DNA of 32,000 nucleotides. Origin: Roseateles amylovorans. Its GTDB lineage: Bacteria; Pseudomonadota; Gammaproteobacteria; Burkholderiales; Burkholderiaceae_C. The stretch is from contig NZ_CP104562.2 of the NCBI RefSeq assembly GCF_025398155.2, forward strand, positions 1,183,602 to 1,215,601, in the 5' to 3' direction. Positions 13,579 through 31,686 of this stretch are shown in pieces. The notes under the pieces are model-generated. The model was not told the DNA's origin and searched no databases. It saw only the letters and a list, made by a program, of their open reading frames with translations. The position numbers and the translations under genes are program-made. Positions within the stretch are counted from its first letter, which is position 1, and each line of letters begins with the position of its first letter.

Positions 13579-13610
13579 AGGAACCGCCTTCGGGCGGTTC
13601 CTCGTTTCTG
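13579..13610 (+). terminator. probable intrinsic terminator after porin 2
   Basis: AGGAACCGCC-ttcg-GGCGGTTCCT followed by CGTTTCTG, a weak U-tract. Confidence 0.6.
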
Positions 13611-13860: not shown

Positions 13861-14838
13861 ATGCTGGTTTTCATTCTCCGCCGTCTGGCGCAAGCCCTGG
13901 TCGTCATGCTGACGGTGGCTTTCATCGCCTTCATGCTGTTCCAGTATGTGGGCGATCCCGTCCACAACCTGCTGGGCCAGGACGCCACCCCTGAGCAGCG
14001 CGAGCAACTGCGCCGCGATCTGGGCCTGGATCAGTCCTTCGCGGTGCAGTTCGGCCATTTCGTGGTCAATGCAGCGCAGGGCGAGTTCGGCATCAGCCTG
14101 CAGCAGGGCCGCAAGGTGTCGACCCTGATCATGGAGCGCTTTCCCGCCACGCTGGAACTCTCCGCCGTGGCCGCATTGATCGCGGTGGGTCTGGGCATTC
14201 CGCTGGGGGTCTATGCGGCCTTGCGACGCGGCAGTTTCGGCACCCAACTGGCCATGGCCTTGTCGCTGGTGGGGGTCTCGCTTCCCACGTTCCTGATTGG
14301 CATCTTGCTGATCCTCACCTTCGCTGTGCAACTGCAGTGGTTACCCAGCAATGGCCGCGGTGACGTGGTGATGCTGGGCAAGTGGAGCACCGGGCTGCTG
14401 ACGGTGGATGGATTGCGGCATGTGCTGCTGCCGGCCATCACCTTGTCGGTGTTCCAACTGACCTTGATCCTGCGCATCGTGCGGGCCGAGATGCTGGAAG
14501 TGCTGCGCACGGACTACATCAAGTTCGCCCGCGCCCGAGGCTTGAGCAACCGGGTGATCTACTTCGGCCATGCGCTCAAGAACACCCTGGTGCCGGTGAT
14601 GACGATCACCGGTCTTCAGTTGGGCTCGTTGATTGCCTTCTCCATCATCACCGAGACCGTGTTTCAATGGCCCGGCATGGGGTTGCTGTTCATTCAGGCG
14701 GTCCAGTTTCCGGACATTCCGGTGATGGCCGCCTACCTTTGCCTGATCTCGTTGATCTTCGTCGTCATCAACCTGGTGGTGGATTTGCTGTACTTTGTCG
14801 TCGACCCCCGGCTGCGGCTGAGCGGCGGCGCCCACTGA
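13861..14838 (+). CDS. ABC transporter permease, peptide/nickel (DppB/OppB) family
   Basis: The ORF runs 13771..14838. I chose the start at Met31 (ATG 13861, MLVFILRRLAQALVVML), the usual family N-terminus. It is multi-TM and has the EAA-like loop (YIKFARARGLS). Confidence 0.9.
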   Translation: MLVFILRRLAQALVVMLTVAFIAFMLFQYVGDPVHNLLGQDATPEQREQLRRDLGLDQSFAVQFGHFVVNAAQGEFGISLQQGRKVSTLIMERFPATLELSAVAALIAVGLGIPLGVYAALRRGSFGTQLAMALSLVGVSLPTFLIGILLILTFAVQLQWLPSNGRGDVVMLGKWSTGLLTVDGLRHVLLPAITLSVFQLTLILRIVRAEMLEVLRTDYIKFARARGLSNRVIYFGHALKNTLVPVMTITGLQLGSLIAFSIITETVFQWPGMGLLFIQAVQFPDIPVMAAYLCLISLIFVVINLVVDLLYFVVDPRLRLSGGAH

Positions 14839-14839
14839 C

Positions 14840-16045: not shown

Positions 16046-16154
16046 GGCCCGCCACCCGGGCGATCGCCGATCGCCGCCTCGGCCCGCTGATGGTTCTACC
16101 CCCTTCACCATGTCTCCCGGCAGCACGCATGATTTCGCACGGAGTGTCCAAGCT

Positions 16155-17126
16155 ATGAGTTCCACTGCGCCGCCCTCGGTGCCGCCCTCACCGAACCCCG
16201 GCCCCCCCACGCGGGCGCCGAACGCGCTGCAGCGCTTTTTCGATGGCGACGTCTGGCATTCCTTCACCCGCTCGCCGGTGACGATGGCGGCGGCCGTCGT
16301 GGCCCTGTTCTGCCTGGTGTGTGCCGTCTTCGCGCCGTGGATCGCGCCGCATGATCCCTTCGATCTGTCGACCGTCGACCTGATGGACTCCCGCCTCCCG
16401 CCCGCATGGAGCGAGGGCGGATCCACCAAGTTCCTGCTGGGGACCGATGACCAGGGCCGCGACCTGCTGAGCGCCATCATGTATGGGGCGCGGATTTCGA
16501 TGCTGGTGGGTTTCGCCTCGGTGCTGGTGTCGATGGTGATCGGCATTGCGCTGGGCCTGCTGGCGGGGTTCGTCGGCGGCAAGACCGATGCCTTCATCAT
16601 GCGGGTCTGCGATGTGATGCTGTCCTTCCCCTCCATCCTGGTGGCGCTGCTGGTGGACGGCATCGGCCGTGTGCTGCTGCCCGATGCGCATGGCACGCTG
16701 GCCTTCGCGGTGCTGATCCTGGCGATCTCGCTGACCGGCTGGGTCCAGTACGCCCGCACCGTGCGTGGCTCCACGCTGGTCGAGCGCAACAAGGAATATG
16801 TGCAGGCCGCGCGTGTCATCGGCGTCAAGACGCCGGCCATCATGTGGCGCCATGTGCTGCCGAATGTCACCGGGCCGGTGCTGGTGCTGGGCACCTTGCA
16901 GGTGGCCTCCGCCATCCTGACCGAGGCGACGCTGTCCTTCCTTGGCGTGGGCGTGCCGCCGACCAGTCCGTCGTTGGGGACGCTGATCCGCATCGGCAAC
17001 GACTTCCTGTTCTCCGGGGAATGGTGGATCACGATCTGGCCCAGTGTGATGCTGGTGATGATTGCGCTGTCGGTGAATCTGCTGGGTGATTGGCTGCGTG
17101 ACGCGCTCAATCCCCGTCTGCGTTGA
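16155..17126 (+). CDS. ABC transporter permease, peptide/nickel (DppC/OppC) family
   Basis: The ORF runs 16110..17126. I prefer ATG 16155 (GGAG upstream), but ATG 16110 is possible. It has the APWIAPHDP N-terminal motif and is multi-TM. Confidence 0.88.
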   Translation: MSSTAPPSVPPSPNPGPPTRAPNALQRFFDGDVWHSFTRSPVTMAAAVVALFCLVCAVFAPWIAPHDPFDLSTVDLMDSRLPPAWSEGGSTKFLLGTDDQGRDLLSAIMYGARISMLVGFASVLVSMVIGIALGLLAGFVGGKTDAFIMRVCDVMLSFPSILVALLVDGIGRVLLPDAHGTLAFAVLILAISLTGWVQYARTVRGSTLVERNKEYVQAARVIGVKTPAIMWRHVLPNVTGPVLVLGTLQVASAILTEATLSFLGVGVPPTSPSLGTLIRIGNDFLFSGEWWITIWPSVMLVMIALSVNLLGDWLRDALNPRLR

Positions 17127-17138
17127 ACGGGTCGCGAG

Positions 17139-18107
17139 ATGACTGCCTTGCTTGAAGTTCGCCACCTGCGGGTGGAATTCCCGACACGTCGCGGCACGCT
17201 GGTCGCGCTGGACGACATTTCCTTCGACATCGCGCCCGGGGAGGTGTTGGGCGTGGTGGGCGAGTCCGGTGCCGGCAAGTCGTTGACCGGGGCGGCCATC
17301 ATCGGCTTGCTGGAGCCGCCGGGCCGCATCGCCGGCGGCGAAATCCGGCTCGAGGGACGCCGCATCGATCAGCTCTCGCCCGATGAGATGCGCCGTGTGC
17401 GCGGACGGCAGATCGGCGCCATCTTCCAGGATCCGCTGACCTCGCTCAACCCGCTCTACAGCGTGGGGCGTCAGTTGATCGAGACCATCACCGCGCACCT
17501 GCCATTGACCGCTCGGCAGGCGCGTGCACGCGCCATCGAGCTGCTGGCCGCAACCGGCATCCCCGCACCCGAAGCGCGGGTGGACCAGTATCCGCATCAG
17601 TTTTCCGGCGGCATGCGCCAGCGGGTGGTGATCGCGCTGGCCCTGGCCGCCAATCCCAAGCTGATCGTGGCCGATGAGCCCACCACCGCGCTGGATGTGT
17701 CGATCCAGGCGCAGATCATTGCCTTGCTGAAGCGCGTCTGCAAAGAGCAGGGCGCGGCCGTGATGCTGGTGACGCATGACATGGGGGTCATCGCCGAGAC
17801 CTGCGACCGGGTCGCGGTGATGTATGCCGGACGCGTTGCCGAGATCGGACCGGTGCAGGAGGTGATTCATCGCCCCGGACATCCCTACACCGCGGGACTG
17901 ATGGGCTCGATTCCGGCGATGGATGAAGACCGCGAGCGTCTGGTGCAGATCGATGGTGCGATGCCCCGACTCAATGCGATCCCATCAGGTTGCGCCTTCC
18001 ATCCGCGTTGCCCGAAGGCCTTCGACCGTTGCGAGCAGCAGCGTCCTGAATTGATGGCGGCTCCCGCCACTGCGGCAGCCTGCTGGCTGCATGGAGGTGC
18101 CGCATGA
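17139..18107 (+). CDS. ABC transporter ATP-binding protein (DppD/OppD-like)
   Basis: Walker A GESGAGKS, signature FSGGMRQR, Walker [13 protein letters not shown], and a C-terminal oligopeptide-type Cys motif (CAFHPRCP). Confidence 0.93.
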
Positions 18108-19150
18108 GTGCCGTGATGACGACAGACGGTGAACAGGCCGCTTCCGACGGCCGCCAGGGAGCGGTGCTGGTCGAGGTGCGCGAGCTATCCAAGAGCTTCG
18201 ACGTGTCCGCGCCCTGGCTCAATCGCGTGATCGAGCGCAAGCCGCGCCAGTTCGTGCATGCGGTCGACGGGGTGAGTTTCCAGATCGAGCGCGGGACGAC
18301 CCTGGCGCTGGTCGGCGAATCCGGTTGCGGCAAAAGCACCGTCGCCCGTTTGCTGGTCGGGCTGTACCGGCCCAGCGGCGGTGAGGTGAGGTTTGACGAT
18401 GTGGACATCGCCACGACACTGGCCGGTCCGGGGGCGCTGCCATTGCGTCGACGGATGCAGATGATCTTTCAGGATCCGTATGCGAGCCTGAATCCGCGCT
18501 GGAAGGTGCAGGACATCGTCGGCGAACCGCTGCGCGAGCATGGCCTGGTGCGCGATGGGGCGGCATTGAAGCAGCGGGTGGGCGAGCTGCTGGTCTCGGT
18601 GGGGCTGTCGCCGGCGGATGTGGAGAAGTTTCCGCATCAGTTTTCCGGTGGCCAGCGCCAACGTATCTCCATCGCCCGTGCCCTGGCGACCGAGCCGGAG
18701 TTCCTGGTCTGCGACGAACCGACGTCAGCGCTTGACGTGTCGGTGCAGGCCCAGGTGCTCAACATCATGAAAGACCTGCAACGGCGGCAGGGCCTGACCT
18801 ATCTGTTCATTTCGCACAACCTGGCGGTGGTGCGGCATGTCGCCGACCAGGTCGGTGTGATGTACCTGGGGCGGCTGGTCGAGCAGGCGGACAAGCGGCG
18901 TCTGTTCGCCGCGCCTCGTCATCCCTACACCCGGATGCTGCTGGATGCGATTCCCGACATCCACATGACGGGTCGTTCCCGCACGCCGGTTCAGGGCGAG
19001 GTGCCGAATCCGCTCAATCCACCCACCGGCTGCAGTTTCCATCCGCGCTGTCCGCATGCGAATGCGCGCTGCAGCCAGGAGCGACCGGCGCTGCTGACGG
19101 TGGAGGGCACACGCGTTGCGTGTCACGCGGTCGAGGAAGGGCGGATCTGA
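18104..19150 (+). CDS. ABC transporter ATP-binding protein (DppF/OppF-like)
   Basis: Walker A GESGCGKS, signature FSGGQRQR, Walker [12 protein letters not shown] and CSFHPRCP. There is a 4-nt overlap with the preceding gene. Confidence 0.93.
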
Positions 19151-20157: not shown

Positions 20158-22596
20158 TCAGCGTTTGAAGAGGTCGAGGATGCTCTTCTTCTCTTCCTCG
20201 GATCCCGTGGTCGGCACGTTTTCGTCGTTCGTCAGGGCGCGCACGCCCTCGTTGCCGCTGAATTCGTCGTAGAACCACTCGCCGTTGAGATTGACCAGGC
20301 CTTCGGTCGGCGGGATCTCGGCCACCGGCGTGTTGCGCAGGGCGTACTGCATGAACTCGATCCACACCGGCAGGGCCAGTCCGCCGCCGGTTTCCCGGTC
20401 GCCCAGCTTGCGGGGTTGGTCATAGCCGATCCACACCACGGCCGCCAGCGTCGGCTGATAGCCGGCGAACCAGGCGTCCATGGAATCGTTGGTGGTGCCG
20501 GTCTTGCCGTAGAGGTCCGGTCGCTTCAGGGTGGATTGCGCGCGCGCGGCGGTGCCGCTGCGCGCCACTTCCTGCAGCAGTCGGCTCATCATGAAGGCAT
20601 TGCGCGGTTCGACGGCGCGCATGTCGTCGGCGAGCGGCTTGGGTGTCGCCTGGTACAGCTGCCGTCCCTGGTGATCAGTGATGCGCTGCACCAGTGAGGG
20701 CGTGATCCGGTAGCCGCCATTGGCGAACACCGAATAGGCCTGCGCCATCTGCATCGGGGTCACCGCGCCAGCGCCCAGGGCCATGGTCAGATAGGCGGGG
20801 TGCTTGTCGGCTTCGAAGCCGAAGTGGGTGATCCAGTCCTGGGCGTACCGAACCCCGATCGCCTGCAGGATCCGGATGGACACCATGTTCTTGGACTTGG
20901 CCAGTGCCGTGTGCAGCGGCATCGCACCTTCGAACTTGCCGTCATAGTTCTTGGGCTCCCAGGGCTGGCTGCCGGTGGTGGAGGCATCAAAGAACAGCGG
21001 GCTGTCGTTGACCACGGTCGCCGGACCGAAGCCCTTTTCCAGCGCTGCCGAATAGATGAAGGGCTTGAAACTCGAGCCCGGTTGGCGCCAGGCCTGGGTG
21101 ACGTGGTTGAACTTGTTCTTGTTGTAATCGAAGCCGCCGACCAGGGCCCGCACGCTGCCGTCCCTCGGATTCAGGGCGACCATCGCCCCTTCCACTTCCG
21201 GCAACTGGGTGATGGTCCATTCGTCCTTGTTGTTGCGGACCAGCTTCACCACCCGGATCACCGCACCGCGTCGGATGCGGGTTTTGGGGTTGCCCTTGTC
21301 GGACAGCCCGGAGGTGGCCGGTTTCAGGCCTTCGCCCACGATGGTGACCGTCTCGCCACTCTGCAGCGCAGCCAGCACCCGCTTCGGATCGGCCTCCAGC
21401 ACGACGGCGGCCAGCAGTTCGTCGTTGGCCGGGTGGTCAGACAGGGCTTCGGCGACCCGGGTGTCCAGCTCTTTCGGGTCGGCCGGGAGGTCCACATAGG
21501 CTTCCGGACCGCGGTACACCTGCCGGCGCTCGTAATCCATGATGCCGCGACGCAGGGCGCGGTAGGCCCGTTCCTGCTCGTCGGCATTCAGCGTGAGGTA
21601 GACATTCAACCCGCGGGTATAGGCCTCTTCCCCGTACTGGCTGAAGATCAGTTGCCGCGCCAGCTCGGCGACGTACTCGGCATGGTTGGCCGCTTCCTGC
21701 GGCGGTCGGATGCGCAGCTTCTCCGCCTTGGCCTCGGCATGCTGCTCGGGGCTGATGAAGCCCATTTCCAGCATCCGGTCGATGATGTATTGCTGGCGCA
21801 ACATCGCGCGGCGCGGATTGTTGATCGGGTTGTAAGCAGATGGTGCTTTTGGCAACCCGGCGAGCATCGCCGCCTCGGCCACCGACAGGTCTTTCATCGG
21901 CTTTCCGAAGTAGACCTCGCTGGCTGCCGCGAAGCCGTAGGCGCGGTGACCCAGGAAGATCTGGTTCATGTAGATCTCGAGGATCTTCTCCTTGGGCAGC
22001 GCGCTCTCGATCTTCAGCGCCAGCAAGATCTCGTAGATCTTGCGGGTGAAGGTCTTCTCGGTGGAGAGATAGAAGTTGCGGGCCACCTGCATCGTGATGG
22101 TGGAGGCGCCCTGGCTCTTGGACTCCCCCACATTGGCCAGGCCGGCGCGAATCACACCCAGGTAGTCGACCCCTCCGTGCTGATAGAAGCGGGCGTCCTC
22201 GATGGCCAGCACCGCGTCCTGCATCACCTTGGGTATGGCGCGGATGCTGGAGTAGCTGCGCCGCTCCTCGCCGTACTCGCCCAACAGCTGCCCTTCACTC
22301 GAGAGCACGCGCAGGGGCAGCTTGGGCCGGTAGTCGGTGAGGCCGCTGATGTCGGGCAACTGCGGATAGGCCATCGCCAGTGCCATGCCGGCCAGCATCG
22401 CGACCGCGCCGACGCCGGCCAGGATCAGGCCCAGCAGCCAGCCCAGCGCTCGCAGCAGCCAATGCTTCTTCGGCTTCTGCTTCCGGGGCGCCTTCTTGGC
22501 GCCCGCCCTCTTTGGAGGGGTGTCGGGGGAGGAGGAAGAGGGGGTGTCGTCGTGGGAGGCTGGGGGGGTCTTCGCGGGCATGAGCAAAGTGTGCAT
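20158..22596 (-). CDS. mrcA: penicillin-binding protein 1A (bifunctional transglycosylase/transpeptidase)
   Basis: 812 aa. It has a glycosyltransferase block (EDARFYQHGGVD) and transpeptidase motifs (SSFKP, SKN, KTGTT). The N-terminal cytoplasmic extension is Lys/Pro-rich. An alternative start is Met6 (22581). Confidence 0.95.
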   Translation of the reverse strand: MHTLLMPAKTPPASHDDTPSSSSPDTPPKRAGAKKAPRKQKPKKHWLLRALGWLLGLILAGVGAVAMLAGMALAMAYPQLPDISGLTDYRPKLPLRVLSSEGQLLGEYGEERRSYSSIRAIPKVMQDAVLAIEDARFYQHGGVDYLGVIRAGLANVGESKSQGASTITMQVARNFYLSTEKTFTRKIYEILLALKIESALPKEKILEIYMNQIFLGHRAYGFAAASEVYFGKPMKDLSVAEAAMLAGLPKAPSAYNPINNPRRAMLRQQYIIDRMLEMGFISPEQHAEAKAEKLRIRPPQEAANHAEYVAELARQLIFSQYGEEAYTRGLNVYLTLNADEQERAYRALRRGIMDYERRQVYRGPEAYVDLPADPKELDTRVAEALSDHPANDELLAAVVLEADPKRVLAALQSGETVTIVGEGLKPATSGLSDKGNPKTRIRRGAVIRVVKLVRNNKDEWTITQLPEVEGAMVALNPRDGSVRALVGGFDYNKNKFNHVTQAWRQPGSSFKPFIYSAALEKGFGPATVVNDSPLFFDASTTGSQPWEPKNYDGKFEGAMPLHTALAKSKNMVSIRILQAIGVRYAQDWITHFGFEADKHPAYLTMALGAGAVTPMQMAQAYSVFANGGYRITPSLVQRITDHQGRQLYQATPKPLADDMRAVEPRNAFMMSRLLQEVARSGTAARAQSTLKRPDLYGKTGTTNDSMDAWFAGYQPTLAAVVWIGYDQPRKLGDRETGGGLALPVWIEFMQYALRNTPVAEIPPTEGLVNLNGEWFYDEFSGNEGVRALTNDENVPTTGSEEEKKSILDLFKR

Positions 22597-22888: not shown

Positions 22889-23968
22889 ATGGGATTTTGG
22901 GACGTACTGCTTGGGCGCGCGCATCCACCCATGATTGGCCTGGACATCTCGTCGTCCAGTGTCAAACTCGTGGAATTGAGCCAAAACTCCAAAGGTGAAT
23001 ACGTGCTTGAACGTTTCGCCACGGAGCCATTTGAAAAAGGTTGGATCACCGACGGCCAGATCGAGAAATTCGATGAGGTTGCGGAGGCCGTTCGTCGCGT
23101 CGTGACGCGCAGCGGCAGCAAGACACGGCATGCCTCATTGGCCATGCCGCAGTCTGCGGTGATCACCAAGAAAATCATGCTGCCGGACGGCCTGCGCGAG
23201 GAAGAACTCGAGTTGCAGGTGGAAGCCGAGGCGAATCAATACATTCCGTTCTCGCTGGACGAGGTGTCGCTGGACTTCTGCGTCATCGGTCCGAGCCCGA
23301 CCTCGGTCGGTGATGTGGAAGTGCTGATCGCTGCGTCCCGCAAGGACCGCGTGCAGGACCGTCAGGCCCTGGCGGAGGCGGCGGGTCTGCGTCCGATGGT
23401 GCTGGACATCGAGTCGCATGCCTCGCGCATGGCGATGGGTCGTCTGGTGCAGAGCCTGCCCAACGAGGGCAAGGATGCGTTGGTCGCGCTGTTTGAAATC
23501 GGCGCCGACACCACCAGCCTGAAGGTGCTTCGCGACGACGAAATGCTGTATGACCGGGACCAGGCATTTGGCGGCTCGCAGCTGACCCTGCTGATTTCGC
23601 GCCAATACGGTTTCTCGTTCGAAGAAGCCGAGCAGAAGAAACTCAACGGCGAACTTCCCGAGGACTATGACACGCAAGTGCTCAATCCTTTTGTGGACAG
23701 TTTGTCCCAGGAAATTGGTCGCGCCTTGCAGTATTTCTTCACCAGCACGCCGCATCACAAGGTTCACTATGTGATGTTGGCCGGCGGCACTGCGACGCTG
23801 CCCGGGCTCAAGGAGCGTGTGACCGAATTGACGGGATTTGCCTGCATGGTCGTGAATCCGTTCGAAAACATGGAACTGGGTTCCGCCGTGCGTGAATCCA
23901 AACTGCGGCGCGAAGCGCCGGCCTACCTGACCGCCTGCGGGCTGGCGATGCGGAGGTTCTTTCAGTGA
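22889..23968 (+). CDS. pilM: type IV pilus assembly protein PilM
   Basis: The ORF begins at TTG 22874. I prefer ATG 22889, after GGGGGA. It has the IGLDISSSSVKLVELS N-terminal actin-like fold block and sits first in the pilMNOPQ order. Confidence 0.93.
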   Translation: MGFWDVLLGRAHPPMIGLDISSSSVKLVELSQNSKGEYVLERFATEPFEKGWITDGQIEKFDEVAEAVRRVVTRSGSKTRHASLAMPQSAVITKKIMLPDGLREEELELQVEAEANQYIPFSLDEVSLDFCVIGPSPTSVGDVEVLIAASRKDRVQDRQALAEAAGLRPMVLDIESHASRMAMGRLVQSLPNEGKDALVALFEIGADTTSLKVLRDDEMLYDRDQAFGGSQLTLLISRQYGFSFEEAEQKKLNGELPEDYDTQVLNPFVDSLSQEIGRALQYFFTSTPHHKVHYVMLAGGTATLPGLKERVTELTGFACMVVNPFENMELGSAVRESKLRREAPAYLTACGLAMRRFFQ

Positions 23969-24573
23969 TTCTGATCAACCTGCTCCCGCACCGCGAGGAG
24001 AAACGCAAGCGTCGTGAGACCGCGTTCTACGTCGGTCTGGGCATGTCCTTCATCGCCGGCCTGCTGGTCGTCGGCGTCATCTATGTGATGCTGGAACAGA
24101 TGACCGCCGCGCAAGTCGGGCGCAACAATTTCCTGAAATCGGAGATTGCCAAGCTCGACGAGCAGATCAAGGACATCGCCACCCTGCGCGACGAGATCGA
24201 GGCGCTGCGCGCCCGTCAGCGCGCGGTGGAAGACCTGCAAAGCGACCGCAACACCCCGGTGCACCTGCTCAACGAGCTGGCGAAGTACACCCCGGAGGGC
24301 ATCTACCTCCAGGGCATTCGCCAGACCGGCAAGAGCGTGGTCATCAACGGTGTGGCGGCGACCAACGAACGTGTTTCGGAATTCCTGCGCAACATCGGCC
24401 GTGCCGATTGGCTGGAAAACCCGGAACTGGTGGAAATCAAGCTGGCGCAGACGAATCAACGCGATGCGCGTCGGCTGTTCGATTTCTCGATGAAGGTGGC
24501 CATCAAGAGCCCGGCGGTGGAAGCACCTGCTGGCGCTGCGAGTGCGCCGGCCGTCAAGGCCAACAAGTCCTGA
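23965..24573 (+). CDS. pilN: type IV pilus assembly protein PilN
   Basis: A GTG start overlaps the pilM stop (GTGA). It has the MILINLLPHREEKRKRR motif, then a TM helix and a coiled coil. Confidence 0.92.
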   Translation: MILINLLPHREEKRKRRETAFYVGLGMSFIAGLLVVGVIYVMLEQMTAAQVGRNNFLKSEIAKLDEQIKDIATLRDEIEALRARQRAVEDLQSDRNTPVHLLNELAKYTPEGIYLQGIRQTGKSVVINGVAATNERVSEFLRNIGRADWLENPELVEIKLAQTNQRDARRLFDFSMKVAIKSPAVEAPAGAASAPAVKANKS

Positions 24574-24580
24574 GGATCGC

Positions 24581-25282
24581 ATGGCAGACCTCAAAAATAT
24601 GGATCTGAACGCGTGGTTCGCGGATTTCTCGAGCCAGTTCCAGAATCTCGATCCCAAGAAGCCCGGCCAGTGGCCGCCCGCCCCGAAGATCTTCGCCTAC
24701 CTGATGGTGGTGATTCTGGTGGTCGTGGCCAGCTGGTTCGCGCTGCTGTCGGACGTGAACGACCAACTCGAGGCTGAAAAGGCCCGCGAGCCGCAGCTCA
24801 AGGAAGACTACCGGGGCAAGCTGGCCCAGGCGGTCAACCTGCCGGAACTGCGCAAGCAGAAGAGCCAGGTCGAGGAATACGTGCTGCAGCTTGAGAAGCA
24901 GCTTCCCGGCAAGGCCGAGATGGATGCGCTGCTGTCCGACATCAACCAGGCGGGCCTGGGTCGTGGTCTTCAATTCGAACTGTTCCGTCCCGGTCAGATC
25001 GTGATGAAGGACTACTACGCCGAGCAGCCGATCTCGTTGAAGGTGTCGGGTCGCTATCACGACATCGGATCGTTCACGGCGGATGTCTCGAACCTCTCCC
25101 GGATCGTGACCCTGCATGACCTGAACATCCAGGCGCCGACCAACAACTCCAATGTCAAGGTGGACCCGAACGGCAACCTGACCATGGAAGCGATCGCCCG
25201 GACCTACCGTTATCTGGATCCGGCCGAGGTCGAAGAACAGAAACGGGTCGCCCGTGAAGCGGCAGCAGGGAAGAGGAAATGA
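24581..25282 (+). CDS. pilO: type IV pilus assembly protein PilO
   Basis: Met14 of ORF 24542..25282, after GAGGA. It has a TM helix (IFAYLMVVILVVVASWFALL), a coiled coil and a PilO core. Confidence 0.9.
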   Translation: MADLKNMDLNAWFADFSSQFQNLDPKKPGQWPPAPKIFAYLMVVILVVVASWFALLSDVNDQLEAEKAREPQLKEDYRGKLAQAVNLPELRKQKSQVEEYVLQLEKQLPGKAEMDALLSDINQAGLGRGLQFELFRPGQIVMKDYYAEQPISLKVSGRYHDIGSFTADVSNLSRIVTLHDLNIQAPTNNSNVKVDPNGNLTMEAIARTYRYLDPAEVEEQKRVAREAAAGKRK

Positions 25283-25836
25283 TGCGCGCCACCCTGATGA
25301 CACGCATCCTGTCTAGCCGGATGCTGGCGCTCGGACTGTGCGGCACGCTGCTGGCGGGCTGCACTTCGAGCACCGATGAACTGCAGCAATGGATGGAAGA
25401 GCAGCGCCAACAGACGCGCCCGACCGTCAAGCCGCTGCAGCCGCCCAAGAAGTTCCTGCCGGAACCCTATGCGGCAATGAATGCGGTGGAGCCCTTCAGC
25501 ACCCAGAAGCTGAGCGTGGCGCTCAAGGCCGAGGCCTCTCAGCCCAGCTCCTTGCTGGCGGCCGAGATGAAGCGTCGCCGCGAGCCGCTGGAGGCTTATC
25601 CGCTGGACAACATGTCGATGGTGGGCAGCGTGAACCGTGGCGGACGCCCGTATGCGCTGCTGCGTGTGGAAAGCCTGCTGTATTACGTCAAGGCGGGTGA
25701 CTACCTGGGCCAGAACTTTGGCCGCATCACCAAGATCAGTGAAACCGAGATCACGTTGCGAGAAGTCGTCCAGGACGCTGCGGGCGAATGGATTGAACGC
25801 ACCAGTACTCTCCAGCTACAGGAGCAGGGACGATGA
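25279..25836 (+). CDS. pilP: type IV pilus assembly lipoprotein PilP
   Basis: The ATG overlaps the pilO stop (ATGA). It has a lipobox (LLAG-C) and a C-terminal beta domain (YLGQNFGRITKISETEITLRE). Confidence 0.9.
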   Translation: MMRATLMTRILSSRMLALGLCGTLLAGCTSSTDELQQWMEEQRQQTRPTVKPLQPPKKFLPEPYAAMNAVEPFSTQKLSVALKAEASQPSSLLAAEMKRRREPLEAYPLDNMSMVGSVNRGGRPYALLRVESLLYYVKAGDYLGQNFGRITKISETEITLREVVQDAAGEWIERTSTLQLQEQGR

Positions 25837-28082
25837 AGACTTTTGTGGAGAACGCTGACATGAGCGCCCGATCGAGCGACCCCAAGAGGGAAGGGAAAAG
25901 CGTCTTGAAGAGCCGCATCGGCGCCTGGCGACTGCTGGCCTGTGCCATGGGTATGGCGGCACTGCTGCCTGTCCAGGCATTGGCGCAGAACATGATCCGC
26001 TCCATCACGTCGACCCAGCAATCGGGTGCCGACGTGGTCCGCATCGAGATGTCGCAGCCGCTGACCGAAGTGCCGCGCGGCTTCGCCGTGCAAGTGCCTC
26101 CGCGTATCGCGCTGGACATGGCCGGCGTGAGCAACGGCCTGGGCCGCAACTCGGTGGACATCAACAGCGGCAACATGCGTTCCGCGAATGTGGCCCAAGC
26201 CGGTGACCGTACCCGTGTGGTGCTGAACCTGCGTCAAGCCAGCACCTACCGCGCCCAGATTCAGGACAGCTCGCTGCTGGTCTTCCTGGATCCGGCCGGT
26301 GGCGCTGCTGCGCCTGCCGCCGCCGCCAGCACGGCGGTGACCACCGAGCCGCTGCATTTCGCCCCGAGCCAGAACGCCACGACGCAAGCGCTGCAGGACA
26401 TCGATTTCCGCCGTGGCGCGGATGGTGCCGGCCGCGTGGTCGTGAACCTGCCGAGCAGCCAGATCGGCGTCGACATCCAGCAGCAGGGCCAGACCCTGGT
26501 GGTGGAGTTCCCGCGCAGTTCGCTGCCGGAGCGCCTGCGCCGTCGCCTGGATGTGACCGATTTCGGCACGCCGGTGCAGACCGTGGTGGCCACCCAGCAA
26601 GCCGATCGGGTGCGCCTGGTCGTGACGCCCAAGGGCAACTGGGAGCACAGCGCCTATCAGAGCGACAACCAGTTCGTGCTGGAAGTGCGCCCGCAGAAGG
26701 TCGACCCTAACAAGCTGACGCAAGGTCCGGGCTATGCCGGCGACAAGCTCAGCCTGAACTTCCAGAACATTGATGTCCGCGCGCTGCTGCAGGTCATCGC
26801 CGACTTCACCAACTTCAACGTGGTGACCAGCGACACCGTGACCGGCAACGTGACCCTGCGTCTGAAGGACGTGCCTTGGGATCAGGCGCTGGACATCATC
26901 CTGCAGGCCAAGGGCCTGGGCATGCGCAAGTCCGGCAATGTGCTGTGGATTGCGCCGAAGGACGAACTGGCCAACAAGGAAAAGGCCGATCTCGAAGCCA
27001 AGCAGCAGATCACCCAGCTGGAGCCGCTGCGCACGCAGTCCTTCCAGATGAACTACACCAAGGCCGAGGAAGTGGCCAAGGGACTGACGGGTCAGAACAG
27101 TGCCGGCGGTGCTGGTGGCAGCAGCCAGGCCTCTCGCATCCTGTCGCCGCGCGGCAGCGTGATCTTCGAAACGCGCACCAACCAGCTGTTCATCACGGAC
27201 GTGCCGGCCAAGCTGGAAGAGATCCAGGCGCTGATCGCCAAGATCGACATTCCGGTTCGTCAGGTGCTGATCGAAGCCCGTATCGTCGAAGCCGACGACC
27301 GCTTCGGCCGCGCTCTGGGCGTGAAGCTCGGCGCCTCTGACCTGCGCGGTCAGCAAGGTGGCATCCCCGGCTACAACGTCGGTGGCAGCAACTACCTGAC
27401 GATTGGCGGCAACTACAACGCCGTTGGTGGACAGACCGGTCAGACGGGGACGGTCAGCTACAGCGACAGCCAATTCGTCAATCTGCCTGCCAACGTGTCG
27501 TCGGATGCCTTCGCCGGGACGTCGGCTGCGAACTTCGCGCTGTCCTTGTTCAGCGCCACCGCCAACCGGTTCCTGAATCTGGAAATCTCGGCACTGGAAG
27601 CCGATGGCCGCGGCAAGATCGTGTCCAGCCCGCGTGTCGTGACGGCAGACCAGACCAAGGCGCTGATCGAGCAGGGTGAAGAAATCCCTTACCAGCAAGC
27701 CACGTCCAGCGGCGCGACCTCCATCAGCTTCAAGAAGGCTGTGCTGAAGCTGGAAGTCACGCCGCAGATCACGCCGGAAGGCAACGTGATCCTGACGGTG
27801 GATGTCAATAAGGACAGCCGCGGTACGCTGACGCCTGGCGGCTACGCCATCAACAACAAGCATGTGCAGACGCTGGTGCTGGTCGAGAATGGCGGCACCG
27901 TGGTGATCGGCGGTATCTACACGCAGGAAGACCTGGAGAGCGAGAACAAGGTTCCGTACCTGGGTGACATTCCGCTGTTGGGCAACTTGTTCAAGAACAA
28001 GAGCCGCAGCTCGTCGAAGACCGAGTTGCTGATCTTCATCACACCGAAGGTGGTGAACGATCGGGTGTCCGCATCGCGCTGA
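25833..28082 (+). CDS. pilQ: type IV pilus secretin PilQ
   Basis: The ATG overlaps the pilP stop (ATGA). It has two AMIN-like N-terminal repeats and a secretin C-domain (VPYLGDIPLLGNLFK...TELLIFITPKVV). Confidence 0.95.
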   Translation: MKTFVENADMSARSSDPKREGKSVLKSRIGAWRLLACAMGMAALLPVQALAQNMIRSITSTQQSGADVVRIEMSQPLTEVPRGFAVQVPPRIALDMAGVSNGLGRNSVDINSGNMRSANVAQAGDRTRVVLNLRQASTYRAQIQDSSLLVFLDPAGGAAAPAAAASTAVTTEPLHFAPSQNATTQALQDIDFRRGADGAGRVVVNLPSSQIGVDIQQQGQTLVVEFPRSSLPERLRRRLDVTDFGTPVQTVVATQQADRVRLVVTPKGNWEHSAYQSDNQFVLEVRPQKVDPNKLTQGPGYAGDKLSLNFQNIDVRALLQVIADFTNFNVVTSDTVTGNVTLRLKDVPWDQALDIILQAKGLGMRKSGNVLWIAPKDELANKEKADLEAKQQITQLEPLRTQSFQMNYTKAEEVAKGLTGQNSAGGAGGSSQASRILSPRGSVIFETRTNQLFITDVPAKLEEIQALIAKIDIPVRQVLIEARIVEADDRFGRALGVKLGASDLRGQQGGIPGYNVGGSNYLTIGGNYNAVGGQTGQTGTVSYSDSQFVNLPANVSSDAFAGTSAANFALSLFSATANRFLNLEISALEADGRGKIVSSPRVVTADQTKALIEQGEEIPYQQATSSGATSISFKKAVLKLEVTPQITPEGNVILTVDVNKDSRGTLTPGGYAINNKHVQTLVLVENGGTVVIGGIYTQEDLESENKVPYLGDIPLLGNLFKNKSRSSSKTELLIFITPKVVNDRVSASR

Positions 28083-28112
28083 CCCTCGGCAGACAGTTTC
28101 AGTGAGGAAGAC

Positions 28113-28136
28113 ACGGCCCATCTGTTGATGGGCCGT
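28113..28136 (+). promoter_or_regulatory. perfect 10-bp stem-loop in the pilQ-lipoprotein spacer
   Basis: ACGGCCCATC-tgtt-GATGGGCCGT, located 31 nt after the pilQ stop and 20 nt before ATG 28157. No U-tract follows. Confidence 0.5.
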
Positions 28137-28156
28137 TGTCACAGGAGTCGAAAGCA

Positions 28157-29878
28157 ATGAAGAAAATTGATCGTCAGGCCATGTCGGGCCAATTCACCGG
28201 GCGTGTCGCACAGATCGCCTTGACTGCCACGATGGTGGCTGTGCTGACCGCTTGCGGCGGCGGCGGCGGAGACGCCGGCGACCCTGTCATTGGCGGAGGC
28301 ACAGGATCGGGCGGCGCCACGGTGACCGTGTCCGATCTGTCCATGACGCTGGACAAGACCAGCATCACGAACTCGGGCAGCGACACGGTCGTCACCACCT
28401 TGACGGCGGTTGATGCGAATCGCGCCGTGGTGGCCAATGTGCCGGTGAGTTTCTCGGTCAACAACGGTGCGACGATCACGGTCATCAACGCGACCACTGA
28501 CACGACCGGCAAGGCCGTGGCGAACGTTCAGATCGGCGCGGACAAGTCCAATCGTCTGGTCACCGTGACCGCGACCAGTGGATCGTTGACCCGTACGGCC
28601 ACCTTCCAGGTGACCGGTGCGGATCTGGATGCCTCTGCAGTTCCGACGACGCCCACGGCTGGTTCCTCTGGCAATACCGTCCAGTACCGACTGAGCGACG
28701 TCAACGACAACGCGATCGCCAATGCGCCGATCGCAGTCACCGCGCCAGGGCTGACCGCAGCCAACGGCACCACCGATGCCAACGGCGCCTTCACCTTCAC
28801 CTACACCGCACCGACCACGCCGGGTCCGATCGACATCTCCGCGACGGCTGGTGGCGTGACCAAGGTGGCCACGGTGACCGTGCCGTCGACCACGTCGACG
28901 ATTCCGGCAGTGACCACGGTGGTCGCCTCGAGCGCGGTGTCGGCGAATCCGACGGTGCTCAATGTCAACAGCACCGGCATCACCACCAATCGCGCCGAAC
29001 TGCGTGCGCTGTTCCTGGGCGCGAACAATTCGCCGATCAAGAACATTCGTGTTCGCTTCGACATGAATGGCGATGTGAACAGCATCGGTGGCACGATCAG
29101 CTCCGGCAGCGCACTGGTCTATACGGACAGTGCTGGTGCGGCAACGACCAGCTACTACCCGGCCTCGCGGCCCAGCCCGACCAATGGCGTGACGATCCGT
29201 GCGTGCTGGGACTACGCCGATTTCGCGGCGACCGCTTGCCCCAACACGCTCACCACCACCCTGACGGTGGTGTCGGATCCGTTGTCGATCAGCATTGGCA
29301 CCGACAACACCCTCGCCGAAGGCACGAGCAAGCTGACCTATGTGAAGCGGTTTGTGGTTCTTGTGGTGGACGCGGCCGGCAATCCCAAGGCCGACGTGCA
29401 GATTACGCCGTCGCTGGACCTCACGTCTTACATGAAGGGCGCTTACGCAGTCTCTGGGACATCGTGGTCGGCCTTCCACTCGCTGGATGGCGTGACGACG
29501 GGTGGTCGAAGCGAGCCCTGCCTGAACGAGGATTTGAACCGCAACGGCTCCATCGATACCGGTGATGACAAGAACCTCAACGGGCAACTGGATCCGCGCA
29601 AGTCTGACGCCTCCATCAGCTTTGAAGGTGCGACCAAGACTGACTCCAGCGGCACTGCGGTGATCAAGTTGGAGTACCCCAAGAGCGTGGCCACCTGGGT
29701 GAATTACACGGTGACCGTGTCGGCCTTTGGCGTGCTGAGCCCGCCTGCGACCTACAGCTCGACCTTGTCCGCATTGGCGACTGATTTCACCAGCGCCACG
29801 GTGTCGCCTGCCTTCCAGGTCAGCCCGTACGGAACCACTCGCCTCTCCGGTGAAAGCTACTGCTCGACCAGAGACTGA
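28157..29878 (+). CDS. uncharacterised lipoprotein with bacterial Ig-like (Big_1/invasin-type) repeats and a Cys-containing C-terminal domain
   Basis: The ORF begins at TTG 28136. I prefer ATG 28157, which has AGGAG 9 nt upstream. It has a signal peptide with a lipobox (AVLTA-C), a Gly-rich linker, and at least three roughly 90-aa T/V/A/S/N-rich repeats. No characterised homologue is recognised. Confidence 0.85.
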   Translation: MKKIDRQAMSGQFTGRVAQIALTATMVAVLTACGGGGGDAGDPVIGGGTGSGGATVTVSDLSMTLDKTSITNSGSDTVVTTLTAVDANRAVVANVPVSFSVNNGATITVINATTDTTGKAVANVQIGADKSNRLVTVTATSGSLTRTATFQVTGADLDASAVPTTPTAGSSGNTVQYRLSDVNDNAIANAPIAVTAPGLTAANGTTDANGAFTFTYTAPTTPGPIDISATAGGVTKVATVTVPSTTSTIPAVTTVVASSAVSANPTVLNVNSTGITTNRAELRALFLGANNSPIKNIRVRFDMNGDVNSIGGTISSGSALVYTDSAGAATTSYYPASRPSPTNGVTIRACWDYADFAATACPNTLTTTLTVVSDPLSISIGTDNTLAEGTSKLTYVKRFVVLVVDAAGNPKADVQITPSLDLTSYMKGAYAVSGTSWSAFHSLDGVTTGGRSEPCLNEDLNRNGSIDTGDDKNLNGQLDPRKSDASISFEGATKTDSSGTAVIKLEYPKSVATWVNYTVTVSAFGVLSPPATYSSTLSALATDFTSATVSPAFQVSPYGTTRLSGESYCSTRD

Positions 29879-30476
29879 CCTGCCTGCAGGAAGGCCCTTG
29901 ATCCTGACCCTGGTCGGCATGCCCGGCGGTGGCAAATCCACCGTCGGCCGTTTGCTGGGCAGGCAGCTGGACATCCCCTTCGTCGACTCCGACGCCGAGA
30001 TCGAAAAACATCTCGGCGGCGAGTCGATCAAGGACTACTTCGCCCGCATGGGCGAAGTTTCGTTTCGGGACGTCGAATCACAGGTCATCGCCGAGCTGTT
30101 GAAGCGTCAGGGTGAGATGGTCCTGGCGACCGGTGGTGGCGCCGTGTTGCGTGAGATCAACCGCGACCGGCTCCATCAGCTTTCGACAGTGGTGTATCTG
30201 CGCTCGTCGCCGGACGAACTCTTCCGTCGTCTTCGACACGACACCCAACGCCCGCTTCTGCAGGTGCCCAATCCCTTGGGCAAGCTGCGTGAGCTCTATG
30301 CGCAGCGGGATCCGCTCTACCGACGCTGCGCGCACTTCGTGCTGGAGACGGCTCGCCCCTCGGTGCATGGGCTCGCCAACATGATCCTGATGCAGATCGA
30401 ACTGGCCGGGCTGATCGATCCGGCCCGGGTGGCGGCGACCGTCGGCGCCACCGTCTCGCCCACCCCTTCGGGGTGA
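29850..30476 (+). CDS. aroK: shikimate kinase
   Basis: Walker [15 protein letters not shown], plus DSD and GGG blocks. The ORF opens at GTG 29850, overlapping the lipoprotein gene by 29 nt with no SD. An alternative start is TTG 29898, preceded by AGGAAGG. The stop is secure. Confidence 0.9.
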
Positions 30477-30549: not shown

Positions 30550-31686
30550 ATGAGTGTTTCGTCCCCTGAGTCTTCCGCGTGCGTGCCGATCGAACTCGGC
30601 GAGCGCAGTTATGAGATCCGCATCGGCCCCGGACTGCTGGACCTTGCCAGTACATGGCAAGGGCTGCCCCGCGCGGCCACGGCGCTGATCGTCACCAACG
30701 ATCGTGTGGGCCCGCTCTATCTCGAACGGCTTCGCACGCAGTTGCAGCCGCACTTCGGACGCATAGATGCCGTCGTGCTGCCGGACGGTGAACAGCACAA
30801 GAGCGCGTCCTCTCTCGATGCGGTGATCGACCACCTGCTCGCGTCAGCGTCTGATCGCAAGACGGTGCTGTTCGCACTGGGCGGTGGCGTGATCGGCGAT
30901 CTGGCCGGCTTCGCTGCCGCCATCTACATGCGAGGCGTGCCCTTTGTGCAGGTCCCGACGACCCTGCTCGCACAGGTCGACTCTTCGGTGGGCGGCAAGA
31001 CGGCGATCAATCACCCCCGCGGCAAGAACATGGTGGGGGCGTTCTACCAGCCCATCCGGGTGGTGGCTGACCTGGACACGCTGGACACGCTGCCCCCGCG
31101 AGAGCTTTCCGCCGGCCTGGCGGAGATCATCAAATACGGCCCCATCGCCGATGCGGCTTTCCTGGACTGGATCGAACACAACCTCGATGCCTTGCTCGAC
31201 CGCGACAAGGCGACGTTGGCCTATGCCGTCAAGCGAAGCTGCGAGATCAAGGCCTGGGTGGTCGGACAGGATGAGCGGGAGTCTGGTCTGCGCGCCATCC
31301 TCAACTTCGGCCACACCTTCGGCCACGCGATCGAGACGGGCCTGGGCTACGGCGCCTGGCTGCATGGCGAAGCCGTGGGCTGCGGCATGGTGCTTGCGTC
31401 GGAACTGTCGGCGCGGCTGGGGTTGATGCCGGCGAGTTTCGTGGACCGGATGCAGCGGCTGATCGAGCGCGCGCGTCTGCCGGTGCTCGCCCCGGCGCTG
31501 GGCCTGGACCGCTATCTCGAGCTGATGCAAGTGGACAAGAAGAATGAGGACGGCGAGATTCGTTTCGTCGTCATCGAAGGCCTGGGCAAGGCGGTCATGC
31601 GCACCGCTTCGAAGACCTTGATTGCCGAGACGCTGGCCGCGCATCTGGACCCCTCGCCCATGGCGGTCCAGCAAACCGATCACTGA
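30550..31686 (+). CDS. aroB: 3-dehydroquinate synthase
   Basis: 378 aa with [47 protein letters not shown] and HGEAVGCG blocks. It follows aroK. Confidence 0.95.

Follow-up and report, generated by a model that had tools for sequence, protein, structure and literature searches.

Why should a gene for an Ig-like repeat lipoprotein lie between the secretin gene of a type IV pilus operon and a gene for shikimate kinase? Pseudomonas, Neisseria and Myxococcus have been the main subjects of type IV pilus operon studies, and in these organisms pilQ is directly followed by aroK or by unrelated genes. We analyzed a stretch of 32,000 nucleotides of Roseateles amylovorans (called the window for simplicity) in which such a gene is found, and asked what its product is, how widely it accompanies pilQ and what it may do there.

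The lipoprotein gene in the pilMNOPQ-aroK-aroB locus

An initial sequence-only reading had described the lipoprotein gene as embedded in a pilMNOPQ-aroK-aroB string, and the junction coordinates of the following features bear this out.

22889..23968, plus strand: pilM, open reading frame (ORF) of uncertain start (TTG 22874 or ATG 22889)
23965..24573, plus strand: pilN, from ORF and tblastn synteny, with a 4-nt overlap with pilM
24581..25282, plus strand: pilO, from ORF and tblastn synteny, with a 7-nt spacer to pilN (24574-24580)
25279..25836, plus strand: pilP, from ORF and tblastn synteny, a lipoprotein (LLAG-C-TSS) gene with 4-nt overlaps at both ends
25833..28082, plus strand: pilQ secretin gene (Pfam: two AMIN domains, N0/STN, Secretin_N, Secretin)
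28112..28135, plus strand: perfect 10-bp hairpin in the pilQ-lipoprotein spacer (arms 28112-28121 and 28126-28135, loop TGTT)
28143..28147, plus strand: Shine-Dalgarno sequence AGGAG, 9 nt 5' of ATG 28157
28157..29878, plus strand: lipoprotein gene of Roseateles amylovorans, from ATG 28157, 573 aa including the signal peptide
29850..30476, plus strand: aroK, shikimate kinase (Pfam SKI, E = 1.5e-45)
30550..31686, plus strand: aroB, 3-dehydroquinate synthase, from ORF and tblastn synteny

The overlaps of pilM/pilN, pilO/pilP and pilP/pilQ are 4 nt each (at 23965, 25279 and 25833), and pilM was found by tblastn, in unchanged order, in all related loci whose contig extends that far. The stop codon of pilQ (28080-28082) is followed by a 74-nt spacer to the lipoprotein gene, the 3' end of which abuts aroK. 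Candidate starts of aroK are GTG 29850 (29-nt overlap) and TTG 29898 (19 nt past the stop), while ATG 29919 would be too late because the strand before the P-loop would be lost. The same window holds the T2SS genes gspG-gspM (38-5124, minus strand); no gspN was seen in the window, which stops at gspM.

The lipoprotein gene is real: its product matches an annotated Roseateles amylovorans protein with 100% identity and has 1331 homologues at E <= 1e-3. A mechanical ORF list starts the frame at TTG 28136 (580 aa), and the cysteines had initially been numbered 357, 368, 462 and 576 because they were counted from this codon; counted from the ATG they are C350, C361, C455 and C569. A 630-aa antisense ORF (28139-30031) was dismissed as a high-GC shadow. 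The GC content of the gene matches that of its neighbors, so that horizontal transfer is unsupported, and recent repeat expansion was rejected as the gene is devoid of tandem repeats at the DNA level.

The spacer hairpin (fold z = -2.85) is not a canonical terminator, since no U-run follows. Roles as a terminator or riboswitch were discarded for this reason, for want of an Rfam match and because the hairpin is kept in close relatives only; it may act in partial attenuation or in mRNA stability. The hairpin and the gene's own AGGAG had been noted at the outset; both are present here, but they are not kept beyond close relatives, and other lineages have spacers of 0-40 nt. Across the related genomes, the distance from pilQ to the lipoprotein gene ranges from -1 to 136 nt. 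No promoter-like site or canonical terminator was found between pilQ and aroK, which we counted in favor of co-expression with PilMNOPQ.

Architecture of the lipoprotein and the motif behind its lipid anchor

The product is a lipoprotein with Ig-like (Big_1) repeats, as the sequence-only reading had proposed and as Pfam, AlphaFold and the lipobox agree. Its parts are as follows.

28157..28255, plus strand: lipoprotein signal peptide, residues 1-33, from the sequence, ending in the lipobox L-T-A-C (Cys33)
28256..28321, plus strand: C-GGG sorting motif and Gly-rich disordered linker, residues 34-55 (pLDDT < 50)
28328..28891, plus strand: two Big_1 Ig-like stalk domains, residues ~58-153 and 154-245 (Pfam, AlphaFold, alignment)
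28922..29875, plus strand: conserved C-terminal module of ~320 aa with three predicted Ig-like domains (AlphaFold model of the C-terminal 324 aa, pLDDT 93.3)
29519..29614, plus strand: two tandem EF-hand-like loops, C-LNEDLNRNGSIDTGDDKNLNGQLDPRKSD, residues 455-486, putative Ca2+ sites

Pfam Big_1 (PF02369) matched four stretches of the protein (E = 5.3e-21, 75 bits against a cut-off of 34.9), with an additional weak match to Invasin_D3. The full-length AlphaFold model (pLDDT 83.6) predicts a signal helix followed by a disordered linker and six all-beta domains, each modeled as an Ig-like beta-sandwich. A phmmer search with the C-terminal module returned 1117 representative proteins, giving a module family of over a thousand representative sequences. 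On this module, Pfam gave only sub-threshold Big_1 matches and no Ca-binding family. Its four cysteines (C350, C361, C455 and C569) are invariant and are predicted to pair as C350-C361 and C455-C569. The stretch of the EF-hand-like loops is the most conserved region of the protein (mean pairwise identity 0.66) and its motif is also retained in a distant subgroup. Both loops follow the 12-residue pattern D-x-[DN]-x-[DN]-G-x-[ILV]-[DE]-x-x-[DE] (DLNRNGSIDTGD followed by DKNLNGQLDPRK; family consensus DxNRNGxIDxGE and DxNGNGxLDPRK), and from the DxNxNGxxD pattern we infer that they may bind Ca2+. The idea that the C-terminal module is far more conserved than the stalk was dropped (mean pairwise identity 0.50-0.57 vs 0.48-0.53).

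The lipobox (...AVLTA-C in the window protein, followed by GGGGGDAGDPVIGGGTGSGG) was recognized in 78 of the 80 related loci; of the other two, one is cut by a contig end. Cys33 is nearly invariant in the family alignment. Behind this cysteine, 79 of 105 family members carry GGG at positions +2 to +4 and 97 of 105 carry GG-, the window protein itself reading C-GGGGG. Among the other predicted lipoproteins of the same loci, GG- was seen in only 20 of 199, and about 14 of these are missed family members or PilP, which in some relatives carries C-G-G-D. Such motifs, defined as Gly/Ser-rich (GGG) or ND(N/D) at +2 to +4, have been related to lipoprotein sorting (PMC12802150). In Acinetobacter, GGG is required for the GspD/GspN-dependent (T2SS) surface display of InvL; GGG is cited as a Lol-avoidance, i.e. 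inner-membrane retention, signal in Pseudomonas; and Gly/Asp motifs occur in T2SS-dependent lipoproteins of Burkholderia pseudomallei and Shewanella (PMC12802150). The initial assignment to the outer membrane on the grounds of Gly at +2 is thus doubtful, because C-G-G-G is a reported motif of Lol avoidance and T2SS display (PMC12802150).

Linkage to pilQ and evolution of the family

Relatives are encoded at 236 places that a genome scan confirmed; we followed the gene order at the best 80 of them. Wherever the contig permitted a check in these related species genomes, the extra gene was found in the pilQ-aroK slot: its immediate neighbors are pilQ on the upstream side (77 of 77 testable genomes) and aroK on the downstream side (79 of 79). 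This neighborhood check, which the sequence-only reading had proposed, covered Roseateles, Rubrivivax, Leptothrix, Sphaerotilus, Ideonella, Aquabacterium, Methylibium, Caldimonas and other genera. Calling the gene lineage-specific, as had been done, is too narrow, since relatives occur in Sphaerotilaceae-type Burkholderiales, in Comamonadaceae and in Gammaproteobacteria (Marinobacter, Beggiatoa, Steroidobacteraceae); the pilQ-adjacent family is present in hundreds of beta- and gammaproteobacterial species.

The distant homologues (PilQ ~40% identical) mostly lie directly after pilQ as well. The link is kept at 23 metagenome loci where PilQ is only 30-47% identical to that of the window, and it is also seen for giant (P0126, P0205, P0254) and shorter (P0196, P0280, P0290) homologues. 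At four loci (L099, L119, L130, L137) the gene follows pilQ with no adjacent aroK, indicating that the link is to pilQ. Some distant loci have different downstream genes, or an interposed aroB or small fn3 gene. Tandem duplications occur inside the slot, and one contig carries two tandem Big_1 genes there. At least 11 distant members do not adjoin pil genes, so that the linkage to pilQ is strong but not universal. Scattering over unrelated loci, which had been named as an outcome that would speak against a tie to the pilus, therefore applies to a minority of the distant members.

The family varies considerably in length. Orthologues span 540-812 aa across the related loci, and aligned homologues reach up to 999 aa; the number of Big_1 stalk domains differs among orthologues. 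In giant homologues of 1714-3083 aa, two or three units are fused and, according to module mapping, the C-terminal module is repeated as a whole two or three times; P0126 alone has ~30 domains. Stretched out, these giants would appear to be too long for the periplasm. The lipoprotein gene is the fastest-evolving gene of the locus (Kimura distance 0.82 vs 0.34 for PilQ and 0.51 for AroK), its product changing 2.4 times faster than PilQ. Mirror-tree partial correlations were weak: 0.20-0.27 with PilN, PilO and PilQ, compared to 0.05 with AroK and 0.50 for the known PilN-PilO pair.

Possible surface display or periplasmic role, and comparison with known systems

The explanation that we tentatively prefer, at somewhat less than an even chance, is that of an adhesin that is co-expressed with PilMNOPQ, depends on a secretin for its display and is anchored at the cell surface. 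Once Sec had exported the protein and Cys33 had been lipidated, C-G-G-G would bar entry into the Lol pathway and keep the protein in the inner membrane, on its periplasmic side, as published work on the motif suggests. A secretin-based machine would then carry the lipoprotein to the cell surface with its lipid anchor kept; by operon logic the carrier would be PilQ/T4aP, the alternative being the T2SS that Roseateles amylovorans also encodes. At the surface, a Big_1 stalk of variable length would present a conserved three-Ig head, probably disulfide-stapled and Ca2+-binding, in adhesion beside the pilus. We counted the conserved place behind pilQ, also in distant taxa, in favor of this explanation and the GGG motif and the InvL-like architecture in favor of surface display, and we regarded the variable repeats, the giants, the tandem genes in the slot, the fast evolution, the invariant cysteines and the EF-hand-like loops as adhesin-like behavior. 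C-G-G-D is also found in PilP of some relatives, at least 11 distant members lie away from pil genes and co-evolution with the Pil proteins is weak, all of which we set against the surface adhesin. We know of no T4aP system that displays a lipoprotein on the surface, which likewise counts against it. The head gives no clue to a ligand, because it has no C-type-lectin-like domain of the invasin/InvL kind and Foldseek returned only generic Ig-like matches; neither is it clearly the business end, since conservation is roughly even along the protein (0.48-0.57). The specific version in which the PilMNOPQ T4aP machine itself is the display route, i.e. a C-GGG lipoprotein held in the inner membrane, passed through PilQ and anchored at the surface by the pilus exit as a Ca2+-dependent adhesin, appears unlikely.

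The same retention motif could also serve a protein that never leaves the periplasm. An inner-membrane-anchored T4aP component, acting as strut, spacer, gate accessory or assembly factor, is the main, if somewhat unlikely, alternative: C-GGG would retain it in the inner membrane like PilP, its module would contact the periplasmic domains of PilQ or the peptidoglycan, and the ~25-aa linker with six to nine Ig-like domains (roughly 20-30 nm) would span the periplasm. The near-invariant place right after pilQ, distant taxa included, the description of GGG as a Lol-avoidance signal together with C-G-G-D in PilP of some relatives, and the residual, if weak, distance co-variation with PilN, PilO and PilQ rather than AroK are consistent with this, and the Ig-like lipoprotein belt that DR_1364 of D. 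radiodurans forms on a PilQ-type secretin is a precedent (PMC10828601). A part of fixed geometry would, however, sit poorly with lengths of 540-812, up to 999 and, with three fused units, up to 3083 aa, or with evolution 2.4 times faster than that of PilQ, and some members are unlinked to pil genes. The model T4aP systems of Pseudomonas, Neisseria and Myxococcus are not known to use an Ig-like lipoprotein of this kind. If the protein were instead exported by the T2SS (GspD, possibly with GspN) as a surface adhesin like InvL, its position behind pilQ would reflect co-regulation with no physical dependence on the pilus. The InvL-like architecture and sorting motif, gspG-gspM in the same window and the C-GG motifs retained by distant members at unrelated loci would fit this export route, but the tight and ancient adjacency is to pilQ and not to gsp genes and would be unneeded for mere co-regulation, and gspN was not seen in the window, which ends at gspM; we consider this route quite unlikely.

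Two further explanations are much less probable. Vertical inheritance alone could hold the gene order within the Sphaerotilaceae-type group, had the gene been caught between pilQ and aroK at an early time without being functionally related to the pilus; this is improbable given that the same adjacency is found where PilQ is only 30-47% identical, persists with different downstream genes or with aroB or a small fn3 gene interposed, and is accompanied by tandem duplications within the slot. [quoted passage not shown] A lipoprotein encoded beside a secretin gene suggests such a role, and so does the E. coli +2 rule, by which a lipoprotein lacking Asp at this position is expected to be sorted by Lol to the outer membrane, but the protein is all Ig-like with no TPR or PulS/AspS-like fold, GGG argues against Lol sorting in related bacteria, and the size and repeat variability are unlike those of pilotins.

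The family newly links three traits: an invasin-type stalk, a lipoprotein sorting motif lately connected with secretin-dependent surface display and a fixed place behind the pilus secretin gene. Display through PilQ would widen the known roles of T4aP machines; the protein would be the first T4aP-dependent surface lipoprotein and a widespread, unrecognized pilus-operon accessory in environmental beta- and gammaproteobacteria. A periplasmic PilQ partner would instead add a new structural component to the T4aP machine. Tractable relatives such as Rubrivivax gelatinosus are suited to telling the two apart, and the family offers a natural test of GGG as a predictor of secretin-dependent lipoproteins outside Acinetobacter.

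Sequence, structure and literature searches agree with the initial impression that the protein has no characterized homologue. No description of a pilQ-adjacent Ig-like lipoprotein was found in the literature, NCBIfam gave nothing above cut-off, and PDB searches with the full protein and with family profiles gave only insignificant or weak Big_1 matches (auracyanin linker, InvE/InvD, phage tail tube). Foldseek with the full-length and C-terminal models matched FdeC, invasin, InvD and InvE among generic Ig/MG arrays of low TM-score, which were too unspecific to assign a functional fold; the C3 and A2M matches were likewise generic MG/Ig arrays (TM ~0.2). A bacterial alpha-2-macroglobulin was rejected, as MG4 scored 19.2 bits, below its cut-off of 24.7, and no thioester-domain family was among the Pfam matches. 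For SlkA/B of P. aeruginosa, compared by description, no link to an Ig-like lipoprotein architecture was found.

The helpers of PilQ, i.e. the TPR pilotins PilF/PilW/Tgl, the LysM protein TsaP, FimV and PilP, are envelope proteins and some are lipoproteins, but none has the architecture of the window protein. The latter has no TPR match in Pfam and an all-beta AlphaFold model with no TPR or small helical pilotin fold; Pfam also found no LysM in it and no PilP domain (PF04351). The window has a separate pilP gene, assigned from ORF and tblastn synteny, and on homologue contigs of the same gene order a separate gene has a precomputed PF04351 match. TcpF and CofJ resemble the window protein in being exported products of a pilus operon. 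They differ in that both are soluble and unrelated in fold, and in that they are encoded within type IVb (T4b) operons, the pilus machine of which exports them. PulA pullulanase and the MtrC/OmcA class are T2SS-displayed lipoproteins that avoid Lol and are taken to the surface by the secretin machine. These enzyme and cytochrome examples (discussed in PMC12802150) are unrelated in sequence to the window protein and have no link to a pilus operon. DR_1364 (GspP) of Deinococcus radiodurans, seen by cryo-EM as an Ig-like (IPT/TIG) lipoprotein belt around a PilQ-type secretin (PMC10828601), shares the association of an Ig-fold lipoprotein with a secretin, but it consists of one domain of 155 aa without a Big_1 match and lies in another genomic context.

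The inverse autotransporters (type Ve secretion; invasin/intimin/FdeC/InvD/InvE; PDB 1cwv, 4e9l, 5ldy, 5n40) share Big_1 arrays with the window protein and are its best Foldseek and PDB-profile matches. The window protein, in contrast, has no N-terminal beta-barrel or LysM according to Pfam and AlphaFold, its anchor being a lipid, and no C-type-lectin head, since its C-terminal 324 aa are modeled as three beta-sandwiches with only Ig-like Foldseek matches. InvL of Acinetobacter baumannii combines a lipid anchor with invasin-like Ig domains and lacks a beta-barrel (PMC9245377). Its gene lies between lpdA and a phosphatase gene and not in a pil operon, it ends in a lectin-like domain whereas the window protein ends in the three-Ig module with EF-hand-like loops, and its export route was shown by experiment whereas that of the window protein is proposed here. 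Compared by description, the two proteins share a lipid anchor in place of a beta-barrel, GGG after the lipid cysteine and an invasin-type Ig stalk (PMC9245377, PMC12802150).

The gene between pilQ and aroK

The lipoprotein gene is a real gene exactly where the sequence-only reading had placed it. In Roseateles amylovorans an annotated "Ig-like domain-containing protein" matches its product at 100% identity, and a sequence search returned 1331 homologues at E <= 1e-3. The features of the interval are:

28112-28135 (+), perfect 10-bp hairpin in the pilQ-lipoprotein spacer, fold z = -2.85 versus shuffled sequence
28143-28147 (+), Shine-Dalgarno AGGAG ahead of ATG 28157
28157-29878 (+), lipoprotein gene, ATG 28157, TGA 29876-29878, 573 aa
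GTG 29850 (29-nt overlap with the lipoprotein gene) or TTG 29898 (+), aroK start

The junctions described earlier, i.e. 4-nt overlaps at pilM/pilN, pilO/pilP and pilP/pilQ, a 7-nt pilN-pilO spacer and a 74-nt spacer with the hairpin after pilQ, proved correct. The terminator scan made no call on the hairpin because no U-run follows it, and no promoter-like or terminator-like signals were found between pilQ and aroK when the window was scanned. Among the related loci compared, this type of hairpin together with a long spacer was restricted to close relatives. One of these two codons must be the aroK start, since the strand before the P-loop is encoded ahead of the first ATG. A 630-aa antisense ORF (28139-30031, -) spans the whole lipoprotein gene; it is interpreted here as a shadow frame due to high GC, the plus strand being taken as coding on account of Pfam matches, homologues and a confident fold.

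Elsewhere in the window, an 812-aa ORF divergent from pilM (20158-22596, -) looks by eye like a class A penicillin-binding protein (PBP1A-like), and a Transgly/Transpeptidase gene occupies the matching position on two contigs that encode homologues. An Rfam match to the Betaproteobacteria toxic small RNA (RF02278, 9219-9280, -; 62 bits, gathering score 50, E = 2.3e-10) sits between ilvA (7353-9011) and COQ7 (10116-10880). Two tandem Porin_4 genes (11040-12083 and 12437-13492, +) precede an oligopeptide-type ABC transporter (13771-19150, +) with two permease and two ATPase genes, in which an M20 peptidase gene (14840-16045) is inserted between both permease genes.

Domain architecture and lipid anchor

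The N-terminus of the lipoprotein consists of two segments:

residues 1-33, lipoprotein signal peptide ending L-T-A-C
residues 34-55, linker GGGGGDAGDPVIGGGTGSGG..., predicted disordered

AlphaFold modelled the rest as six beta-sandwich domains (pLDDT 83.6; 93.3 for the last ~320 aa modelled separately). Pfam Big_1, anticipated from the repeats, matched four times above the curated cut-off (E = 5.3e-21), with weak matches to Invasin_D3 and MG4. Foldseek against the PDB returned arrays of Ig/MG domains (complement C3, A2M-like proteins, FdeC, invasin, InvD, InvE, integrin alpha legs) and recognised no specific functional fold; TM-scores were low owing to the flexible linkage of the domains. The protein has no C-type lectin head. 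Profile searches of PDB sequences gave only weak matches, to InvE/InvD, and no entry in Pfam, NCBIfam or PDB covers the C-terminal module, the conserved ~310-320-aa part with three Ig-like domains.

In an alignment of 35 homologues the lipobox Cys was nearly invariant and the number of N-terminal Big_1 repeats varied, the window protein being among the shortest; orthologues at the 80 related loci span 540-812 aa. The four C-terminal Cys noticed earlier are present and invariant, but had been numbered from a mechanical TTG start; counted from the ATG they are C350, C361, C455 and C569, with putative disulfides C350-C361 and C455-C569. The best-conserved stretch, C-x-N-E-D-x-N-R-N-G-x-I-D-x-G-E-D-x-N-G-N-G-x-L-D-P-R-K-S-D, forms two consecutive 12-residue loops of EF-hand/dockerin pattern, which may bind Ca2+.

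Glycine at +2 had been taken as a sign of outer-membrane sorting, whereas published work suggests otherwise. GGG or ND(N/D) occupies P2'-P4' on T2SS-dependent surface lipoproteins of A. baumannii, GGG and GDD are Lol-avoidance signals in Pseudomonas, and in Burkholderia pseudomallei and Shewanella T2SS-dependent lipoproteins are distinguished by Gly/Asp motifs (PMC12802150). Among 105 non-redundant family members from the fetched loci, 79 carry GGG and 97 GG- after the lipid Cys, versus GG- in 20/199 other lipoproteins predicted at these loci; about 10 of these 20 are family members missed by the filter and four are PilP (C-G-G-D; fetched loci L012 ~5255, L067 ~5194, L077 ~5061, L130 ~4129). 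The PilP of the window reads C-T-S-S. The C-G-G-D of some PilP agrees with the idea that GG-type motifs signal Lol avoidance in this group of bacteria. The window lipoprotein may avoid Lol.

Conservation of the slot and distant relatives

When one genome for each GTDB species was scanned with the family profile, 236 relatives were confirmed, and the best 80 of the 236 loci were fetched and searched by tblastn with PilM, N, O, P, Q, AroK and AroB of the window. Every one of these 80 showed the order pilM-N-O-P-Q, lipoprotein gene, aroK, aroB on one strand, with pilQ directly upstream in all 77 loci with a long enough contig and aroK directly downstream in 79/79. The genera include Roseateles, Mitsuaria, Paucibacter, Pelomonas, Rubrivivax, Ideonella, Leptothrix, Sphaerotilus, Aquabacterium, Methylibium, Caldimonas, Piscinibacter, Aquincola and Rhizobacter. 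The spacer after pilQ ranged from -1 to 136 nt, and the lipoprotein evolves fastest at the locus (Kimura distance 0.82 versus PilQ 0.34, AroK 0.51 and PilM 0.15). Two contigs of betaproteobacterial type with pilQ-gene-aroK (L019, L074) lie in MAGs labelled Nakamurella lactea and Ilumatobacteraceae (Actinomycetota), most likely through binning contamination.

Searched with phmmer against 1.84 billion representative proteins, the C-terminal 324 aa had 1117 matches at E <= 1e-3, 154 of them at E <= 1e-30. These include giants of 1714-3083 aa, likewise lipoproteins with Gly-rich N-termini, in which the whole ~310-aa module occurs 2-3 times with Big_1 repeats ahead of each copy; giants are therefore fused copies of the basic unit.

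Settings of distant homologues (P) and giant-bearing loci (L)
P0126: pilMNOPQ-aroB-giant
P0205: pilMNOPQ-small fn3 gene-giant
P0254: pilMNOPQ-giant, giant overlaps pilQ end
P0242: directly after pilQ
P0280: directly after pilQ, order pilQ-gene-aroK
P0196: two tandem Big_1 genes (883 + 730 aa) between pilQ and aroK
P0290: pilQ-1067-aa Big_1 gene-module gene
L083/L084: giant 8001-17252, 3083 aa, 2-3 fused [Big_1]n + module units; in L083 aroB lies between pilMNOPQ and giant
L085/L086: giant 8001-14558, 2185 aa, fused likewise; in L085 a 122-aa fn3 protein lies between pilQ and giant
L087: giant 8001-15017, 2338 aa, fused likewise; downstream of pilMNOPQ, as are the other L giants

L090 also has two tandem Big_1 genes after pilQ (3768-7981; 1067 + 326 aa); such tandems, as on the P0196 contig, point either to a duplication that took place in the slot or to a gene that has been split.

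Named members picked up by a distant-module profile belong to Beggiatoa, Steroidobacteraceae, Marinobacter, Paracidovorax and Variovorax. In a metagenome scan with this profile 23 loci had pilQ directly upstream (PilQ ~34-49% identical to that of the window), nine more were cut at the 5' end with aroK after the gene, and at least 10 lacked pil genes despite at least 3 kb of upstream sequence. Scattering without pil linkage, named as a refuting observation in the sequence-only reading, applies to the last group. The unlinked loci lie among unrelated housekeeping genes (for example sohB-TPMT-symporter / arginase-topA, priA / argS-SPOR, metE / MatE). One genome copy, interrupted by N runs, lies ~6 kb from minor-pilin genes, and at L099, L119, L130 and L137 the gene comes after pilQ but is not followed by aroK. 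Given this spread of contexts, it is pilQ that the gene is associated with. The linkage, though old and dominant, is not obligatory for every superfamily member. A pil-unlinked subgroup (L117, L129, L140, L143, L147) is probably a gammaproteobacterial lineage. In L117, Pfam places a sodium:dicarboxylate symporter on one side of the gene and an arginase-family gene on the other, with sohB, a TPMT gene and topA nearby; L129, L140 and L143 have a similar ORF layout.

Possible roles and known systems

We tentatively favour, at somewhat less than even chances, an adhesin that depends on a secretin, is anchored at the cell surface and is co-produced with PilMNOPQ. Its exporter would be PilQ only with rather low probability, which if true is a novel case; T2SS could serve instead, and the gspG-gspM run of the window is relevant as this alternative:

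38-535 (-), gspM
532-1887 (-), gspL
2133-3179 (-), gspK
3176-3814 (-), gspJ
3816-4205 (-), gspI
4202-4696 (-), gspH
4693-5124 (-), gspG

The run covers 38-5124 on the minus strand; gspN, if present, would lie beyond the window start. The main competing reading, an inner-membrane-anchored periplasmic partner of PilQ like PilP or the DR_1364 belt, appears somewhat unlikely: strict adjacency to pilQ and weak residual co-variation with PilN, PilO and PilQ would suit such a partner, but the wide differences in length and the existence of fused giants would not. A pilotin-like assembly factor is unlikely, and so is a hitchhiker gene with no tie to pili.

Literature searches turned up no description of a pilQ-adjacent Ig-like lipoprotein. 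Lacking barrel and lectin head, the protein is not an inverse autotransporter, and it fails the defining tests of pilotins, TsaP, PilP and alpha-2-macroglobulins. DR_1364 is an Ig-like lipoprotein belt on the Deinococcus secretin (PMC10828601). InvL, the T2SS-dependent adhesin of A. baumannii, is a lipoprotein that has invasin-like Ig domains but lacks a beta-barrel (PMC9245377); the window lipoprotein shares its design and sorting motif and matches InvL-type lipoproteins in structural features and motif, but differs from them in head and genomic setting.
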